A stretch of 64,000 nt of DNA from Gemmatimonadota bacterium (GCA_026705925.1 JAPOZT010000019.1:49878-113877); one strand, 5' to 3'; shown: positions 2,602 through 39,005, numbered from the stretch's first letter. Notes: generated by a model from the letters alone, not told the origin. Translations and numbers: made by a program.

Positions 2602-2997
2602 ATGGAGGAGACCATGACGGAACAGGACGTTCAGAACTGGCTCGAGGTATATGGCCGTGCCTGGGTCGGTAGCGACCCGGACCTGGCGGTCACATTGTTT
2701 GCCGAAACGGCCACTTATCGTGAAACGCCTTTTGATGAACCAATGAGAGGACGACACGAAATACGGGCGTACTGGCAGAAATACGCGGTGGAAACACACG
2801 AGGACATCGAGTTTGAATCTCAGGTCTGGGCGGTCAGGAACGATACCGCGATTGCCGGCTGGCAAGCCCGCTACACCCTGCAGGCCACCGGAGCACGGGT
2901 CAGCCTCGACGGGACGTTCAGACTCGTGTTTTCAAACGAAACGGGTGCTCTTCAGTGCACTGTCCTCGAAGAGTGGTGGCACAGAAAAGAATCTTGA
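2602..2997 (+). CDS. SnoaL-like / NTF2-fold protein
   Basis: 131-aa ORF with GGAGGAG upstream. WQARYTL...FRLVF pattern typical of SnoaL-like ketosteroid-isomerase fold. Alternative start at 2614. Confidence 0.55.
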   Translation: MEETMTEQDVQNWLEVYGRAWVGSDPDLAVTLFAETATYRETPFDEPMRGRHEIRAYWQKYAVETHEDIEFESQVWAVRNDTAIAGWQARYTLQATGARVSLDGTFRLVFSNETGALQCTVLEEWWHRKES

Positions 2998-3027: not shown

Positions 3028-3750
3028 TTACAGCACCCCGGCCACCCGAAAGAAGTTCTCCAGGATCTTCCGCCCGTGCGGGTAGACGTCCACGAAGTAT
3101 TCCGGGTGGAACTGCGTGCCGTACAGGGGCCGTTCCCGGTGCCTGATCGCCTGGATCCGGCAGTTTTCGTTCGACGCGATGAGATCGAAGTCCGGGGGTA
3201 CAGTCTTCATCTCAGCGTAGTGCGACTGCCGGACGACCACCGGATCGGGCAACCCGTCAAAAAGCGGATCGGCCTTCACCGGATTCACCGGGTAGAAGCC
3301 CTCTTCACAGAAGTAACCCAGCGCATCGGGATTGGGATCGAGCACGTCGGGCTCGCCGGACCGAAGCGGACGCATCATCTCGTCTTCGAGTTTGGCCAGG
3401 TTGCGAAAACCGTCATTGAACATGAACCCCATGAGCTGGTGGCTGGCGCACAGTCCCATGGTAGGCACGTCCACCATCGCGTTCAGCGTATCTTCGAAGC
3501 CGTAGAATTCCGCCGGTTTGAAATGCTGGAAGAAGGTCCCTGCGCCGCTGAGCAGCATGGCGCGAGGTTTCAGCGGCTCGACGATTTCCGGCGTCATCTG
3601 CTCCTGGTGCAGCATCAGGCACGGCTGCCCGGAGATTTCCTCCAGCCGCCGCTTCAGCCAGAAATCCCGGCCGTCTTTATTGTAGGATTCCAGCGTCCCG
3701 ATGCGAATCCAGATGATCAAGTAGTCATCCGTCCTGTTTGGAAACCACAT
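3028..3750 (-). CDS. class I glutamine amidotransferase-like protein
   Basis: GATase1 signature ...LYGTQFHPE... near C-terminus, GLCASHQL nucleophile-elbow region. Confidence 0.7.
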   Translation of the reverse strand: MWFPNRTDDYLIIWIRIGTLESYNKDGRDFWLKRRLEEISGQPCLMLHQEQMTPEIVEPLKPRAMLLSGAGTFFQHFKPAEFYGFEDTLNAMVDVPTMGLCASHQLMGFMFNDGFRNLAKLEDEMMRPLRSGEPDVLDPNPDALGYFCEEGFYPVNPVKADPLFDGLPDPVVVRQSHYAEMKTVPPDFDLIASNENCRIQAIRHRERPLYGTQFHPEYFVDVYPHGRKILENFFRVAGVL

Positions 3751-3777
3751 GCGTACAATTCAACGAGAGTCAACCTT

Positions 3778-4110
3778 CTAACCCTTGACATCTTCCTCTT
3801 TTCTTGATTCGAGATACCCGATCAGCCCTTCATTGATTTTACCGTATGTAGATTCTGCCCCCTTCATTACCTCGTGAATCGTTTCGACTGGCTGTCCTTC
3901 CAATATCAATTCTGCGATAACAGTAACCAATGCGTCTGGATCGTCAACCTTGCCCGGGTCCCAATCTCTGAGTCTTTCAGATTCCTCAGCCATATGTTTC
4001 TGAAAGTACTCTATCTGATCAACTTTCATATCACAAGCTCGAATGGAGAGGCCGAGAAGTAGGTTTTCAATGGCAATCAGCTTTCCATACACAAATGAAT
4101 CTACTCTCAT
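3778..4110 (-). CDS. hypothetical acidic soluble protein (islet gene A)
   Basis: Low-GC ORF. Start chosen at the ATG that forms an ATGA overlap with the stop of upstream gene B at 4107-4110. Confidence 0.4.
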   Translation of the reverse strand: MRVDSFVYGKLIAIENLLLGLSIRACDMKVDQIEYFQKHMAEESERLRDWDPGKVDDPDALVTVIAELILEGQPVETIHEVMKGAESTYGKINEGLIGYLESRKEEDVKG

Positions 4111-4337
4111 TCGGACCACCTCCATCCATTTCGTAAGCGAGGTTCCCTTCTATCGAGTAAAATCTCCTGCCTTCCCTTCACCTCGACAACCACTTCCTTT
4201 ATCTCCTTCAAGTCGTCACGAATACCTCGGATTCCATCTGTGATTTTTGTCAGATACTGCCCTCTTAGAGTGAGAAAAACCATGATGACCGCACAAATGG
4301 CAATGACGCTGGACGGTATGATACTCAGGTCAAACAT
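4107..4337 (-). CDS. small N-terminally anchored coiled-coil membrane protein (islet gene B)
   Basis: Start at MFDLSI with GGGAGAGGGA immediately upstream. One TM helix (IIPSSVIAICAVIMVFLTL) followed by charged heptad-like region. Confidence 0.45.
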   Translation of the reverse strand: MFDLSIIPSSVIAICAVIMVFLTLRGQYLTKITDGIRGIRDDLKEIKEVVVEVKGRQEILLDRREPRLRNGWRWSE

Positions 4338-4596
4338 TCCCTCTCCCTGTATGTCGTTTCGGCCGTTGTATCCAGCAAGCTGCCCGGCGTGGGTGACTAC
4401 ATGAATCTCAAATAACAAAGTCACAAGGTCGGCAAATTGTCAACGCCGATTTTGTTGGCATCTCGTCAACACTCGTGTATCCCAGCCTTCTCATCTCCTA
4501 TGCCATCAGATCAGAGTTCCCAGGCCGGTTTGATCCCGATGTTCACCGTTCGATATAACCCCCTTTCTTTTTTGTTAACGCGATCCCGGATTCACG

Positions 4597-4857
4597 TTAC
4601 TGATGCTGGGATATCCGTAATCGTCCCTCTACCCGTCCCAGGCGCGTATTCATGTCGTGTATCTCTTCCCGCATTGAGGATAACTCGGTACGTATAGCAG
4701 CCAACTCGGTACGCATTTCCGAGAAGTCGGAACGGATTTCATCCCTGAATTCCTGGTTCAGCTGATTGACAAACGCAAAAACGGTAATGACAAGAACCCC
4801 TGCGGCCGTTATGATCTGGGCGCCGAAGGCCCATTGGTCCCGAGACATCGTGGTCAT
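4597..4857 (-). CDS. small N-terminally anchored coiled-coil membrane protein (islet gene C, paralogous in architecture to B)
   Basis: ATG preceded by AAGGAG-N6. TM helix (IITAAGVLVITVFAFV) then EFRDEIRSDFSEMRTELAAIRTELSSMREEI coiled-coil-like segment. Confidence 0.5.
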   Translation of the reverse strand: MTTMSRDQWAFGAQIITAAGVLVITVFAFVNQLNQEFRDEIRSDFSEMRTELAAIRTELSSMREEIHDMNTRLGRVEGRLRISQHQ

Positions 4858-4994
4858 GTCTGACTCCTTCCAAAGTTGATCCAAATAAGCCTACCGCCGT
4901 TGATCCCACGCTGATATCTTAAGAGTCGCATTTCAAGTTTCCTATCTCGCAGAAAAAACGCTGTTGAACACTATCTTGCGAAAAGGACCACACA

Positions 4995-5927
4995 ATGATC
5001 GTCATGGCAACGAACAACGGCGACGTGGGCATCCGGCAGGCGGTGGCCGCGCTCAGGGAAGGCAAGACCGCGGTGGACGCCATCGAGATCGGCATCCGGG
5101 AGGTGGAGGTGCACCGTCCCGACCGTAGCGTCGGCCTGCACGGCTATCCCAACATCCTCGGCTATCCCCAGCTGGACGCCCTCATCATGGACGGCCGCAC
5201 CCGCGACGTGGGGGCCGTGGGCGCAGTGACGGGATACGACCACCCGATCTCGATCGCCCGCTGCGTCATGGAGAAGCTGATACACGTCTTTCTCGTCGCC
5301 GACGGGGCGGAGCGGTTCGCCAGCGAAATGGGTTTCGAGAAGAGCACCTATGTGGACCCCGAAATGCCCGAGATCTACGCGAAGCACGTGGTCGAACAAC
5401 TCGGCATCGACGACCCCGAAGAACTCCAGCACACCAAAGAGCTGTGGAAGCTGAGCCACCTGGCCGTCGATCCGCAGAAGGCCGGGGGCACGACCAACTT
5501 CATCGCGCAGGACGGCAACGGCGACCTCTGCGTGGGCGTGAGCACGAGCGGTTGGGGATGGAAGTACCCGGGCCGCCTGGGTGATTCGCCGGTCATCAGC
5601 GCGGGCGGTTTCGCCGACAACCGCTACGGCGCCGCGGCGTGTACGGGCACGGGAGAGCTGGCCATCCGGACCGGCGCGGCCCGGAACGTGGTGACCTACA
5701 TGAAGATGGGCATGTCGCTCGAAGAGGCCACGGCCGAGGGGCTTCGGGACATGAACGAGCTGGATTCCCAGCGCGTGGGCGGCGTGCAGATCATCTCCCT
5801 GGATGCCAGCGGCGCCCACATGGCGGGAACCACGAGCGACCGGAAAGGCAGCCACGTCTACATGACGGCCGACATGGACGAGCCCGAGTTCGTCGAAGGC
5901 ATCTCGGTGCCGTACGAAAGTGCGTAG
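4995..5927 (+). CDS. Ntn-hydrolase asparaginase-2 family (isoaspartyl peptidase / glycosylasparaginase-like)
   Basis: GGTTNF...TSTSGWGWK...GAAACTGTGE motifs of plant-type asparaginase/glycosylasparaginase family. Confidence 0.8.
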   Translation: MIVMATNNGDVGIRQAVAALREGKTAVDAIEIGIREVEVHRPDRSVGLHGYPNILGYPQLDALIMDGRTRDVGAVGAVTGYDHPISIARCVMEKLIHVFLVADGAERFASEMGFEKSTYVDPEMPEIYAKHVVEQLGIDDPEELQHTKELWKLSHLAVDPQKAGGTTNFIAQDGNGDLCVGVSTSGWGWKYPGRLGDSPVISAGGFADNRYGAAACTGTGELAIRTGAARNVVTYMKMGMSLEEATAEGLRDMNELDSQRVGGVQIISLDASGAHMAGTTSDRKGSHVYMTADMDEPEFVEGISVPYESA

Positions 5928-7723: not shown

Positions 7724-8050
7724 TCAGGTTAGCTTCATCACGGTCAAGATTGCCCCGAAGCCCGTTACGAAAATCCCAATAGACCATCGAAACAGTGTAT
7801 TCGAGTGGGCGATCATTTCCGTTCTCATCCGCTCCATGTCCGTTCTCATCTGTTCCATGTCTGTTCTCAGTACACCTAGATCGTCACGTGTGGCTACATG
7901 CTCCAGTTTCTCCTCGATTCTGGTCAATCGGATCTTGATGTTGTCCGAACTGTAGTACAGATCGTCCTCGATCCGCCTGATGGACGCCGCGATTTCCCGT
8001 GAACTCATCCCGGTATTGCCGGTTGGACGTTTGCTTTTTGACTGGTTCAT
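7724..8050 (-). CDS. DUF1640-like tail-anchored coiled-coil protein (paralog D)
   Basis: N-terminal conserved NxSKSKRPTGxTGMSSREIxASIRRIEDDLY shared with neighbour. (T/R)xDL / RTxM heptad repeats. C-terminal TM helix (WSIGIFVTGFGAILTVMKL). Contains 21-nt in-frame tandem repeat. Confidence 0.6.
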   Translation of the reverse strand: MNQSKSKRPTGNTGMSSREIAASIRRIEDDLYYSSDNIKIRLTRIEEKLEHVATRDDLGVLRTDMEQMRTDMERMRTEMIAHSNTLFRWSIGIFVTGFGAILTVMKLT

Positions 8051-8086: not shown

Positions 8087-8509
8087 TCAGGTTAGCTTCA
8101 ATACGGCCAAGATGACCCCCATGCAGGAAACAACAACGCCGATTGTCCATCGAAATTGCGTGTGAACTAGGGCGATCATTTCCGTTCTCAATTCTGCAAG
8201 GTCTTCCTGTGTGGCGAATGCCCCCAGATCGTCCTTTGTGGCAAAGGCCTTCAAATCTTCCTTTGTGGCAAAGGCCTTCAGATCGTCACGTGTGACGAAC
8301 GCTTTCAGATCATCACGGGTGGCGAATGCTTTCAGGTCGTCACGTGTGACGACATGCTCCAGCTTCTCCTCGATCCTGGTCAGGCGTATCATGATGTTGT
8401 CGGACCCGAAATACAGATCATCTTCGATCCGCCTGATGGACGCCTCGATTTCCCGCGAACTCATCCCGGTTCCGCCGGTTGGTCGTTTGCTTTTTGGATT
8501 GTTCATCAC
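8087..8509 (-). CDS. DUF1640-like tail-anchored coiled-coil protein (paralog E) with expanded TRDDLKAFA repeat
   Basis: Same N-terminus and C-terminal TM as 7724-8050. Five to six in-frame 27-nt tandem units encoding TRDDLKAFA variants. Confidence 0.6.
   Translation of the reverse strand: MMNNPKSKRPTGGTGMSSREIEASIRRIEDDLYFGSDNIMIRLTRIEEKLEHVVTRDDLKAFATRDDLKAFVTRDDLKAFATKEDLKAFATKDDLGAFATQEDLAELRTEMIALVHTQFRWTIGVVVSCMGVILAVLKLT
8214..8348 (-). repeat. in-frame 27-nt tandem repeat array (about 5 units) inside DUF1640-like gene E
   Basis: Units ggcaaaggccttcaRatcKtcMYKtgt seen directly. Paralog D has a 21-nt x2.5 repeat at about 7820-7875. Confidence 0.8.
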
Positions 8510-11498: not shown

Positions 11499-11735
11499 GT
11501 GCCTAAAGTCAGCTCTAAACGACAGATTACGCTTCCGGCGGATCAGTGCCGTTTAGTCGGCATCGAGCCGGGCGACGAGTGCCAGAGCTTCGTGGCCGAC
11601 GGACGCATTACCATAATACGCCAGGAGCCCGGCATCGCCTGGGGATGCCGGGCGCATCTCGAAGGCGATCCGACGGTTTCGGAAGAGGAATCGCGCCAGG
11701 ACGCGATAGAAGGAAAGCGAGAACAGACGCCTTAA
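11499..11735 (+). CDS. vapB: AbrB/MazE/SpoVT-family antitoxin (VapB-like)
   Basis: GTG start with AGGAG 8 nt upstream. MPKVSSKRQITLPADQCRLVGIEPGDE is a SpoVT-AbrB swapped-hairpin signature. Confidence 0.7.
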   Translation: MPKVSSKRQITLPADQCRLVGIEPGDECQSFVADGRITIIRQEPGIAWGCRAHLEGDPTVSEEESRQDAIEGKREQTP

Positions 11736-12130
11736 TCGCCATCGACACCAATGCCCTGCTGCGCTATCTCCTGAGAGACGACGATGGGAAGGCTGAACAT
11801 GCATGTCGCGTGATAGAAGGCGGCGAGCGTGTGCTTATTACGGATATGGTACTGGCGGAAACGGTGAGGACGTTAGCCAGCCCAGGAATCGCGTGACCCG
11901 GGCGGAGCTGATCGACCTGATCAATAACCTGCCGCAAGGTGCAAATCTGCACTTTGAGGATGACGAAGCGGTCTGAAGCGCCCCGCAGGCCTATCGTAGG
12001 ACGAAGGCGGACTTCGCCGACGCCCTGATCGTGTGCAAGGCCGAAAAGCTGGCTGTCGCGGGCGACGAGTTGAGCGCTGTTTACACCTTCGATGACGTCG
12101 CTTTGCAATTGCCCGGTACTGCAAAGCCGT
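11729..12130 (+). pseudogene. vapC: PIN-domain toxin (VapC) disrupted by at least two frameshifts and lacking canonical start
   Basis: Three consecutive frames encode IAIDTNALLRYLLRDD... / RAELIDLINNLPQGANLHFEDDEAV / ADFADALIVCKAEKLAVAG...YTFDD, which are consecutive PIN-domain segments. Confidence 0.6.
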
Positions 12131-13337: not shown

Positions 13338-13973
13338 TTAACTCGGCAAGAACTCAATAGAGCTTATGTCTCGGCCTGTAAGGTACACACCGTGACCATT
13401 AGTAACCCAATTGTTTTCTTCATCTAGCTCGAATATCTCTTCGATATACAAATCTCGTTCATCGGGATCAGAAGAGATAAACGAATCTGCTCCTAGGAAA
13501 CCGCCAAACATGGAACCGTTATTCAATCTAACCAGTATATACTGTTCATTCAAGTCTGAAAACGTCCAATCCCAAGCACTCGGAGTTGGATGTATGGGAT
13601 TAAGCCTGATTTTCTTTAACGTTTTATACAGTAACGTTCTGTTTGAAACAGCTCCAGTAACAGCACCTACAATGACTGGAATTATAACAAGAAAAACCAA
13701 CCACCTTAGCGTACCTAGTGTTGGACCTTCCCACCATAAATGATTTGCAATCAACACGTCTGTAATTAGGAACAACACAGCCCAGTAAATCGTGGAAACC
13801 GTTAAATAAAGTAAGAATCCTGCTGGATATGGAAGAATCCTTCCTGAAACTAGTTGCGACCTGACAAAAACGATTATGAATCCTGGCGTGACAGCCATAA
13901 TAAAAACCAGCGCTGTGGGATTTACTTTTAGCGAATGCCACCCAGGAAACAATTCACCGATTAGGTTTTCCAT
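13338..13973 (-). CDS. hypothetical membrane protein (4 N-terminal TM helices + soluble C-terminal domain) in about 40% GC islet
   Basis: Long ORF with strongly AT-biased codon usage versus neighbours. No family recognised. Confidence 0.55.
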   Translation of the reverse strand: MENLIGELFPGWHSLKVNPTALVFIMAVTPGFIIVFVRSQLVSGRILPYPAGFLLYLTVSTIYWAVLFLITDVLIANHLWWEGPTLGTLRWLVFLVIIPVIVGAVTGAVSNRTLLYKTLKKIRLNPIHPTPSAWDWTFSDLNEQYILVRLNNGSMFGGFLGADSFISSDPDERDLYIEEIFELDEENNWVTNGHGVYLTGRDISSIEFLPS

Positions 13974-30976: not shown

Positions 30977-31013
30977 TTGACGTAGCATGGATGCGGGGCT
31001 ATTATGCTATAAT
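30977..31013 (+). promoter_or_regulatory. sigma70-like promoter of higBA (TTGACG-N17-TATTAT), -10 region abuts the start codon
   Basis: Hexamers read directly. Predicted TSS at about 31012, implying a leaderless or near-leaderless higB mRNA. Confidence 0.4.
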
Positions 31014-31305
31014 GATAATGTCGTTCCGCAGTAAAGGAACTGAAGATATCTTCGATGGACGCGAAACACGTGCTGCGCGCTCCACATGTCCGTCCTCACT
31101 ATGGTCTGTTGCTGTACGTAAACTTGAACAGTTGGATTCGGTTGATAAACTACATGACATGAACAAACCCCCAGGCAATCGTCTCCAGTCCCTGCGAGGT
31201 GCGCGTTCCGGGCAGTACAGCGTTCGAATCAACGACCAGTACCGCGTGTGCTTCGTCTGGTCGGATGCTGGACCGCGGGATGTTGAAATCGTCGACTATC
31301 ATTAA
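31012..31305 (+). CDS. higB: HigB toxin (RelE/ParE superfamily, plasmid-maintenance killer protein)
   Basis: MIMSFRSKGTEDIFDG...PPGNRLQSL...YSVRINDQYRVCFVW...DVEIVDYH matches HigB family. Confidence 0.75.
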   Translation: MIMSFRSKGTEDIFDGRETRAARSTCPSSLWSVAVRKLEQLDSVDKLHDMNKPPGNRLQSLRGARSGQYSVRINDQYRVCFVWSDAGPRDVEIVDYH

Positions 31306-31326
31306 AACAAGTTAGAGGTGTTTATT

Positions 31327-31641
31327 ATGGTACGTGTTCCTACAAATCGCATTCCAACCCATCCGGGTGAAATGCTGCTGGAAGAGTTCCTGATACCTAT
31401 GAAGTTGACGCAGCGTGAATTGGCTGACGCACTTAACGTTCCCTACCAGCGCGTGAACGAACTGGTAAACGCCCGTCGCGGTATTACACCCAGCACAGCG
31501 CTGCGCCTGGCCAAGTACTTCGACGTGTCGCCCTCATTCTGGCTGAATCTACAGCTACGTTGGGACTTGTATCACGCTATGCGGTCAGAAGCCCGCGAGT
31601 TGGCGGCGATCGAGCCTCGGCGCATAGGCGTCGAAGCGTAA
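31327..31641 (+). CDS. higA: HigA antitoxin (XRE-family HTH addiction-module antidote)
   Basis: HPGEMLLEEFL...LTQRELADALNVPYQRVNELVNARRGITPSTALRLAKYF. Confidence 0.75.
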   Translation: MVRVPTNRIPTHPGEMLLEEFLIPMKLTQRELADALNVPYQRVNELVNARRGITPSTALRLAKYFDVSPSFWLNLQLRWDLYHAMRSEARELAAIEPRRIGVEA

Positions 31642-38397: not shown

Positions 38398-38610
38398 TCA
38401 CTGCTCAAGATTCGTAATCTTCTCTTCAACAAACACCTGCTCAATCGGCATATCAAATAACCTGGAGATCTTGAAGGCCAGGGACAGGCTCGGGTCATAC
38501 TTGCCTTTCTCAATGGCATTCACTGTCTGCCTCGAGACTTTCAAACGATCCGCCAATTCGGCCTGGGTCCAGTCCCTTTCGGCGCGCAATACCTTCAGAC
38601 GGTTTCTCAT
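38398..38610 (-). CDS. XRE-family HTH transcriptional regulator (70 aa), cassette 1
   Basis: MRNRLKVLRAERDWTQAELADRLKVSRQTVNAIEKGKYDPSLSLAFKISRLF, Cro/C1-type HTH. Confidence 0.8.
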   Translation of the reverse strand: MRNRLKVLRAERDWTQAELADRLKVSRQTVNAIEKGKYDPSLSLAFKISRLFDMPIEQVFVEEKITNLEQ

Positions 38611-39005
38611 CGGTACTTCCTACCGGCGACGAGTTGCCCCATACTCCAAAGCAGAATCATGACAAAGCCAACCCACATCGTGTTGAAGGAAGGAAATCCC
38701 ACGTTTTCCAGCAACCCGTAGCTCAAACAGAAAATCAGGGTGGCAATGTACGCGATCACAACCGCTTCAAGATGTAAGTGCCTGAGCATTTCATCCATAC
38801 GCCGAACGAAACGAACCACGGCCAGCATCATGAACACGAAGGGGATCACCGGCGCCACCGTAACCGGGATCCGCCAGGGTGAATCGAGGTTCTCTCTCAG
38901 AAACATCAGCGACGCTACCTGTACGACTACATAGGCCAGCATGGAGCCGCCGAATTCCAGCAAATAACGTATTGTAGTTTGTCTCATCGTGTGCTGCCTC
39001 CTCAC
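38607..39005 (-). CDS. small polytopic membrane protein partnered with XRE regulator, cassette 1
   Basis: ATGA overlap with downstream HTH gene. Four hydrophobic helices. TTGACA-type promoter upstream. Confidence 0.55.
   Translation of the reverse strand: MRRQHTMRQTTIRYLLEFGGSMLAYVVVQVASLMFLRENLDSPWRIPVTVAPVIPFVFMMLAVVRFVRRMDEMLRHLHLEAVVIAYIATLIFCLSYGLLENVGFPSFNTMWVGFVMILLWSMGQLVAGRKYR

Follow-up and report, generated by a model that had tools for sequence, protein, structure and literature searches.

What is encoded in a short low-GC tract of a Gemmatimonadota chromosome, and do its three small genes form one functional module? This question is raised by positions 3778-4857 of the 64,000-nucleotide stretch of DNA analysed here (hereafter the window). 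GC content falls to 0.486 over a 1.4-kb trough (3607-5037), compared with 0.59-0.69 in the flanks and 0.593 in the window as a whole, a drop that the initial annotation had pointed out and that gives the tract a foreign-looking composition. The genes, named C, B and A, lie head to tail in that order on the minus strand, among genes for asparaginase, PhyH, GATase, SnoaL and SDR proteins; no phage genes occur within ±5 kb, and no further copies of A, B or C exist within the 64-kb window. Third-position GC is 0.61 in C, 0.52 in B and 0.43 in A, compared with 0.70-0.88 in adjoining genes, such that B-A has the lowest values of the region.

Gene C (4597-4857, minus strand; ATG at 4857, stop at 4597) encodes 86 amino acids and is preceded by the ribosome-binding site AAGGAG (4864-4869), 6 nt 5' of its ATG, as had been reported earlier. 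A spacer of 259 nt (4338-4596) separates it from gene B (4107-4337, minus strand; ATG at 4337, TGA at 4107-4109; 76 aa), which has the ribosome-binding site GGGAGAGGG (4339-4347) 5' of its ATG. Gene A (3778-4110, minus strand; ATG at 4110-4108, stop at 3778; 110 aa) starts within B: the TGA of B and the ATG of A overlap as ATGA (4107-4110), in agreement with the initial annotation, and we additionally found a ribosome-binding site for A, GGAGGTG (4117-4123), which lies in the 3'-terminal part of B, 6 nt 5' of the A ATG, and coincides with part of the codons for the conserved C-terminus of B (EPxLxxGxRW). The overlap and the internal ribosome-binding site together indicate that A is translationally coupled to B, and the two proteins are predicted to be co-produced stoichiometrically. 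The ATGA overlap is retained in all contigs that carry A, including L001-L003, L005 and L007, and start codons, ribosome-binding sites and the B/A overlap are conserved across three genomic contexts.

Orthologous loci of the region were found in several metagenome assemblies, one of them in a record named 'sponge.metagenome', with 82-100% identity for A and B. Nei-Gojobori estimates from sequence pairs put dN/dS at 0.06-0.12 in A and at 0.07-0.08 in B, over dS values of 0.3-1.1 (in A up to 1.1), and at 0.24-0.48 in C. Since all three have metagenome orthologues and dN/dS ratios well below 1, A, B and C can be taken, on this comparative evidence, as real genes under purifying selection rather than chance ORFs, and the gene calls of the initial annotation stand; the absence of conservation from related genomes that it had named as a refutation is not seen for any of the three. 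It is therefore barely credible that these are spurious ORFs of AT-rich junk DNA or remnants without function: such a reading would account for the shortness of the genes and for the absence of annotated homologues of A and B, but spurious ORFs are effectively excluded by the ratios for A and B at these levels of synonymous divergence, and the starts, ribosome-binding sites and overlap kept in three contexts likewise argue against it.

The proteins encoded by C and B each combine one N-terminal transmembrane helix with a coiled coil, as first described, a result borne out by Kyte-Doolittle peaks and heptad shuffling. In C, the transmembrane helix covers residues 11-30 or thereabouts (nt 4768-4827; peak 19-residue mean of 2.17, from residue 12) and is followed by a heptad coiled coil at about residues 31-82 (nt 4612-4767). 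Hydrophobic residues occupy 80-82% of the a/d positions in C and B, a value reached in 0 of 2000 shuffles for C and in 4 of 2000 for B. AlphaFold, run on C with a 36-sequence alignment, returned one continuous helix over residues 3-85 (pLDDT 78). C clearly shows the RxE(L/M) pattern that had been ascribed to both proteins, as RDEI, RTEL, RTEL and REEI; B follows it more loosely, with RDDL and RQEI. A repeat search detected three 21-nt, 7-codon direct repeats in C (4682-4744, minus strand), which are the DNA trace of heptads varying in number among paralogues. The soluble part of C has a pI of 5.6, and with one K/R before the transmembrane helix against two to three after it, its topology is ambiguous.

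The first 5-7 residues or so of B (MFDLS...) form an acidic N-terminus, after which come a transmembrane helix at residues 6-24 or so (nt 4266-4322; peak 19-residue mean of 2.61, from residue 6) and a basic heptad helix that ends in EPRLRNGWRW. The pI is 9.0 for the whole protein and 9.8 for the part after the transmembrane helix, with four K/R within 16 residues of that helix, and by the positive-inside rule we infer an N-out/C-in topology for B. A has the opposite charge (pI 4.6; 23 D+E versus 13 K+R); AlphaFold modelled it as all-helical, with four helices, but unreliably (pLDDT 51). We regard A as a predicted acidic, all-helical soluble protein of an essentially orphan family.

Remote homology searches, which the initial annotation had called for, separated C sharply in numbers from its two neighbours. 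At least 88 homologues of C were found, all in Gemmatimonadota-type assemblies, at 2-5 per genome (a 3.18-Mb contig and a 191-kb contig, for instance, carry three each) and with lengths of 79-102 aa; the names that such homologues bear at NCBI assign the lineage to the Gemmatimonadota. The family has invariant N-terminal residues (R6, W9, F11, G12 and Q14), then the transmembrane helix, then NQxNxEFRDE, and an invariant C-terminal HDMNTRLGRVEGxLR; between the two invariant ends, members differ by indels of 4, 7 and 11 residues. The C protein of the window carries every family invariant (R6, W9, F11, G12, Q14, EFR and NTRLGRVEGxLR) and is 49-91% identical to 35 aligned members. Paralogues of C occur solo or in tandem amid housekeeping genes (SelA/SelD, an LptD-like gene, thiolase, aminotransferase). 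Profile matches of C were sub-threshold (DUF6779, 22.6 bits; DUF2730, 12.3 bits, E 0.19; phrog_1009, E 2.3e-5) and sit within transmembrane or coiled-coil sequence, and a PDB profile search with C gave generic coiled coils only. C is thus a resident, vertically inherited member of a Gemmatimonadota-specific, multi-copy family of anchored coiled coils whose ends are fixed and whose heptad count varies. The family has no database name, and is a clean illustration from nature of anchored coiled coils that differ in length.

Small coiled-coil genes often follow C paralogues. An 88-aa protein with five SQVRETQ repeats lies between two C paralogues at L017 4314-4580. Directly beside C-family genes at L014 5524-5739 is a 70-aa protein built from RLxxLExKMDx repeats of 11 residues; the 137-aa, N-anchored protein at L011 5501-5914 is a longer-repeat allele of the latter.

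For A and B, a word-indexed search of 5.8 billion proteins recovered only three near-identical relatives of A and two of B. HMMER with A over 1.84 billion representatives added one marginal match, the 82-aa protein P0094 (E 7.6e-4), which is the sole distant relative of A. It is encoded on a short contig (L008) between a Pam3 gp33-like (DUF7307) protein and an Anp1-like glycosyltransferase, in a string of genes (3-1245) with overlapping stops and starts that looks phage-type; this neighbourhood is a faint hint of phage ancestry. A Gp157-like identity was considered for the protein upstream of P0094 and rejected in favour of the Pam3 gp33-like assignment that Pfam gives. Alignments of A and B scanned against GTDB representative genomes, IMG/VR and JGI metagenomes gave no match, nor did tblastn searches of phage and plasmid records with A, and neither protein matched anything in 50,697 phage records. 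PADLOC returned 0 matches for both, Pfam, NCBIfam and PHROGs returned noise only, as did a PDB profile search with A, and no DNA-binding domain is recognisable in A. Two candidate relationships of A were also rejected: it is not WXG100-like, since its W-D-P-G stretch does not conform to WxG and lacks a conserved G, and an 84-aa protein of L005 is not its paralogue (BLASTP E 1.7). Two genes 3' of A in L005, a 141-aa protein (2390-2815) shows a D...QxK arrangement that recalls PD-(D/E)xK nucleases, and gave no Pfam or PADLOC match.

Whether C belongs with B-A can be judged from the sister genome GCA_965242885.1 (locus L009). In blastn, this locus aligns to window 5200-4353 at 91-93% identity, spanning asparaginase, C and nearly all of the C-B spacer, and aligns again to window 3780-3024, from the stop codon of A into the GATase gene. 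Between these matches the window has a 572-bp B-A cassette (3781-4352, minus strand), comprising the ribosome-binding site, B and A, where the sister genome has instead 540 bp with an unrelated gene (L009 5575-5964), which encodes a 129-aa protein of seven NVADLKT heptads. According to blastn and inspection of the junctions, the cassette borders fall at 4352/4353 and 3780/3781, that is, at gene ends, with GAAACGAC as the junction sequence of the slot downstream of C. (The 129-aa protein and the 88-aa SQVRETQ-repeat protein were considered as mutual relatives, and do not align.) Moreover, B-A alone is shared with contigs whose flanks are unrelated to the window: L007 has only 4346-3783 in common with it (86% identity), and L005 and L006 only 4149-3778 (82% identity), matches that amount to the ribosome-binding site, B and A, or most thereof. 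The L007 contig has a GC content of 43%, and A is immediately followed there by a gene for an IS1-like DDE transposase; in L005 the pair sits among other small orphan genes, with B as a 90-aa variant that has 14 extra residues and retains the ATGA overlap.

Because the sister genome keeps C without B-A, and because B-A alone is shared with unrelated contigs, the alignments indicate that C and the 259-nt spacer are part of the resident chromosome and that B-A is a discrete, foreign, horizontally mobile two-gene cassette. The low-GC islet is therefore a composite of resident C and foreign B-A, and the single three-gene module first proposed for it is not supported. With only about five independent B-A sequences, what is drawn from their distribution is thin. 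The SnoaL-like gene between the GATase and PhyH genes (window 2602-2997; L001 7341-7724) is missing from L002 and L009, and is a second small strain-variable insertion of the same neighbourhood.

The spacer is about 90% conserved in three strains regardless of the cassette that follows, and is resident down to position 4353; in L002 it has a 26-nt deletion. Consensus scans of the spacer found no relevant promoter or terminator, its predicted fold is no more stable than that of shuffled sequence (z +0.9), and Rfam has no matches anywhere in the 64-kb window. At the cassette borders we found neither direct nor inverted repeats, attC-like ones included, and near the cassette no recombinase. The spacer could supply the cassette slot with a promoter or serve as a landing site for recombination, and ORF-precise borders without repeats or a recombinase, combined with a conserved spacer, hint at a mechanism for the exchange of small genes.

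The initial annotation had also likened C and B to a pair of genes at 7.7-8.5 kb, describing the same chemistry with inverted topology. This pair, D1 and D2 (window 7724-8050 and 8087-8509, minus strand), encodes paralogous tail-anchored coiled coils, with MRTDM/MRTEM heptads and tandem DNA repeats (21 nt x2.7 and 27 nt x5.3; TRDDLKAFA units). The lengths of the called orthologues differ between strains (108/125, 126/139 and 126/130 aa), and may reflect variation in repeat number. D1 matches phrog_689 'holin' (E 7.8e-6) and falls just below the cut-off for DUF2730 (22.6 bits). Within the window, C and D1 show weak similarity (E about 0.03) and have their anchors at opposite ends, so the proposed kinship of chemistry holds for C against D1/D2 but not for B, which is dissimilar to both; the broader notion that small anchored coiled coils recur in this lineage is upheld.

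Combining the above results, B-A most resembles a selfish toxin-antidote pair of the addiction or abortive-defence type, a tentative reading that we consider possible rather than probable. In this proposal, the slot directly downstream of C, which B-A fills here, is a site where small cassettes are exchanged. B would span the inner membrane, its N-terminus facing out and its basic heptad helix in the cytoplasm, and A, predicted to be an acidic four-helix cytoplasmic protein, would be translated by coupling from the same mRNA. A may then bind the basic cytoplasmic helix of B, the putative membrane-acting component, and hold it inactive. We propose this binding because the two proteins would be co-produced, are of opposite charge, have a membrane anchor on one partner, are both under strong constraint, move as a unit and are present or absent at the strain level. 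Against this reading, neither A nor B shows above-noise similarity to any family of toxins, antitoxins, immunity or defence proteins in PADLOC, Pfam, NCBIfam or PHROGs, a toxin-first membrane toxin with a protein antidote is an uncommon arrangement, and B is longer than classic small membrane toxins, with a regular coiled coil that would suit a scaffold equally. In L007, too, B-A comes after a C-like gene, an adjacency that could mean a functional link and to which the cassette reading gives little weight.

Two other low-GC islets of the window, with ORF translations read by eye, contain an AbrB/SpoVT-like plus PIN-like pair (11499-11896) and a HigB-like plus XRE/HigA-like pair (30991-31641), a context in favour of the toxin-antidote reading; the other low-GC islets of the window are, judging by these translations, probable toxin-antitoxin or accessory pairs. 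Read in the same way, the islet at 38398-39005 encodes an XRE regulator and a small multi-pass membrane protein, and that at 13338-13973 a 211-aa membrane protein.

The main rival to the toxin-antidote reading, in line with the initial annotation, takes C and whatever lies downstream of it as one system, in which anchored coiled coils of the C family serve as membrane scaffolds with an interchangeable partner, which may be a soluble coiled-coil protein or, as in this islet, B-A, such that the islet would be a modular organiser of the membrane or envelope and not a selfish cassette. Several arrangements favour this view: C is followed by the 129-aa heptad-repeat protein in L009; a 91-aa C paralogue, the 88-aa SQVRETQ-repeat protein and an 80-aa C paralogue follow one another in L017; and anchored proteins of 83, 80 and 73 aa precede the 70-aa soluble coiled coil in L014. 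Furthermore, in L007, where the flanks are unrelated, a divergent C-like gene of 84 aa lies directly 5' of B-A (pairwise E 5e-6 against C, over the NTRLxRxEG end), and the C-B spacer is conserved whichever cassette comes next. However, B-A in L005/L006 has no C-family gene directly beside it, C paralogues also occur solo (L018, L019 and L021), third-position GC is much lower in B-A than in C, and B-A has a far narrower distribution, with 2-3 homologues compared with at least 88 for C. Terminator and promoter scans gave no evidence either way on co-transcription of C with B-A. On balance we hold the one-system reading to be somewhat unlikely. A bolder combination appears more doubtful still: C-family genes would mark integrase-free slots that swap ORF-precise mini-cassettes (B-A in this case, diverse coiled-coil genes, soluble or anchored, in others) among sponge-associated bacteria of differing GC, C plus a variable partner would be a modular two-part membrane system, such as a diversifying device against phages or at the host interface, and B-A would be the first of a new family of membrane toxins with protein antidotes.

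An origin of B and/or C as a phage-derived lysis or exclusion accessory, comparable to the phage Mu gp25 'releasin' (DUF2730) or to an XhlA-type holin accessory, is improbable. Membrane-tethered charged helices would here regulate how membrane-bound enzymes are released, or prevent superinfection. The predicted architecture does resemble that of gp25, which has an N-terminal transmembrane domain, an N-out/C-in topology and an anionic cytoplasmic domain of 70-odd residues, and gp25-type genes lie within about 5 genes of the endolysin in transposable (Mu-like) phages (PMC9239132). Consistent with such an origin are the sub-threshold matches of C (phrog_1009 over nearly its full length, and DUF2730), the 18.2 bits of L005 B against DUF2730, precomputed weak PF10805 matches on several C homologues, and the adjacency of P0094 to a Pam3 gp33-like phage protein. 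Membership of DUF2730/gp25 (PF10805) is set at a Pfam gathering score of 24.9 bits, however, and C (12.3), L005 B (18.2) and D1 (22.6) all score below it, with B of the window not listed; the scores arise in coiled-coil and transmembrane regions and are driven by composition. In addition, endolysin, spanin, transposase and other phage genes are absent within ±5 kb, A and B are unmatched in the phage records and IMG/VR, and the cytoplasmic domain of B is basic, in contrast to the anionic domain of gp25. Very unlikely, finally, is a role in host interaction, in which the anchored heptad coiled coils of a sponge symbiont (C, B and the pair at 7.7-8.5 kb) would act as mimics of eukaryotic SNARE-like or tether-like proteins and disturb host membrane traffic. 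The near-identical locus in the 'sponge.metagenome' record would fit such a role, as would small membrane-anchored heptad coiled coils of variable repeat number with many copies per genome; but we saw no secretion signal or linkage to a secretion system, Pfam scans gave no similarity to SNARE or Inc families, and the reading is based on architecture alone.

The toxin-antidote reading of B-A thus stays a proposal of function, and the present value of the locus is descriptive, with no long-standing open question touched. Should B and A prove to be a membrane toxin and its protein antidote, they would constitute a new toxin-antitoxin or defence family outside all current databases, from an uncultured, sponge-associated lineage of Gemmatimonadota.

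How do these proteins compare with known systems? The comparison with tail-anchored coiled coils of the XhlA and DUF1640 (CCDC90-like) type fits the pair at 7.7-8.5 kb, and not B or C; C shares MRTEL/MRTDM-type heptad chemistry with that pair and carries the anchor at the opposite end, and every Pfam score is below cut-off. Like DUF2730/gp25, B and C are small, with an N-terminal transmembrane anchor and a charged helical C-terminal domain, and B is predicted to be N-out/C-in; unlike it, they have no transposable-phage context or nearby endolysin, and C is chromosomal and multi-copy. Small N-anchored helper proteins such as PspB, TatA/TatB and YhcB offer a parallel in size (70-90 residues) and in their N-terminal transmembrane helix with an amphipathic or coiled helix after it. 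None of these families, including the PspB- and TatA-type ones (PF06667 and PF02416), is listed for B or L005 B among Pfam matches with E up to 10, and no psp or tat genes lie beside the islet.

Type I membrane toxins (Hok, TisB, Fst, TxpA) are hydrophobic peptides of usually fewer than 60 aa that are paired with an antisense RNA. B, at 76-90 aa, is longer, with a soluble domain of at least 50 residues and a protein partner, and Rfam gave no match in the window to an antisense RNA, although an uncatalogued one is conceivable. Among two-protein toxin-antitoxin systems, higBA, hicAB and mqsRA are toxin-first bicistrons, and SpoIISA/SpoIISB and GhoT/GhoS have membrane toxins. B-A differs from such bicistrons in having no sequence kinship to a known toxin, antitoxin or immunity family and no detected DNA-binding domain in A, and its putative toxin B is a single-pass coiled coil, not a known toxin fold. 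The likeness lies in two small, overlapping, coupled genes that encode a basic and an acidic partner, in a mobile, strain-variable, low-GC cassette within a window whose other low-GC islets look like toxin-antitoxin pairs. The layout itself is type II-like: a small overlapping bicistron with an internal ribosome-binding site, found in three contexts and replaced in the sister genome.
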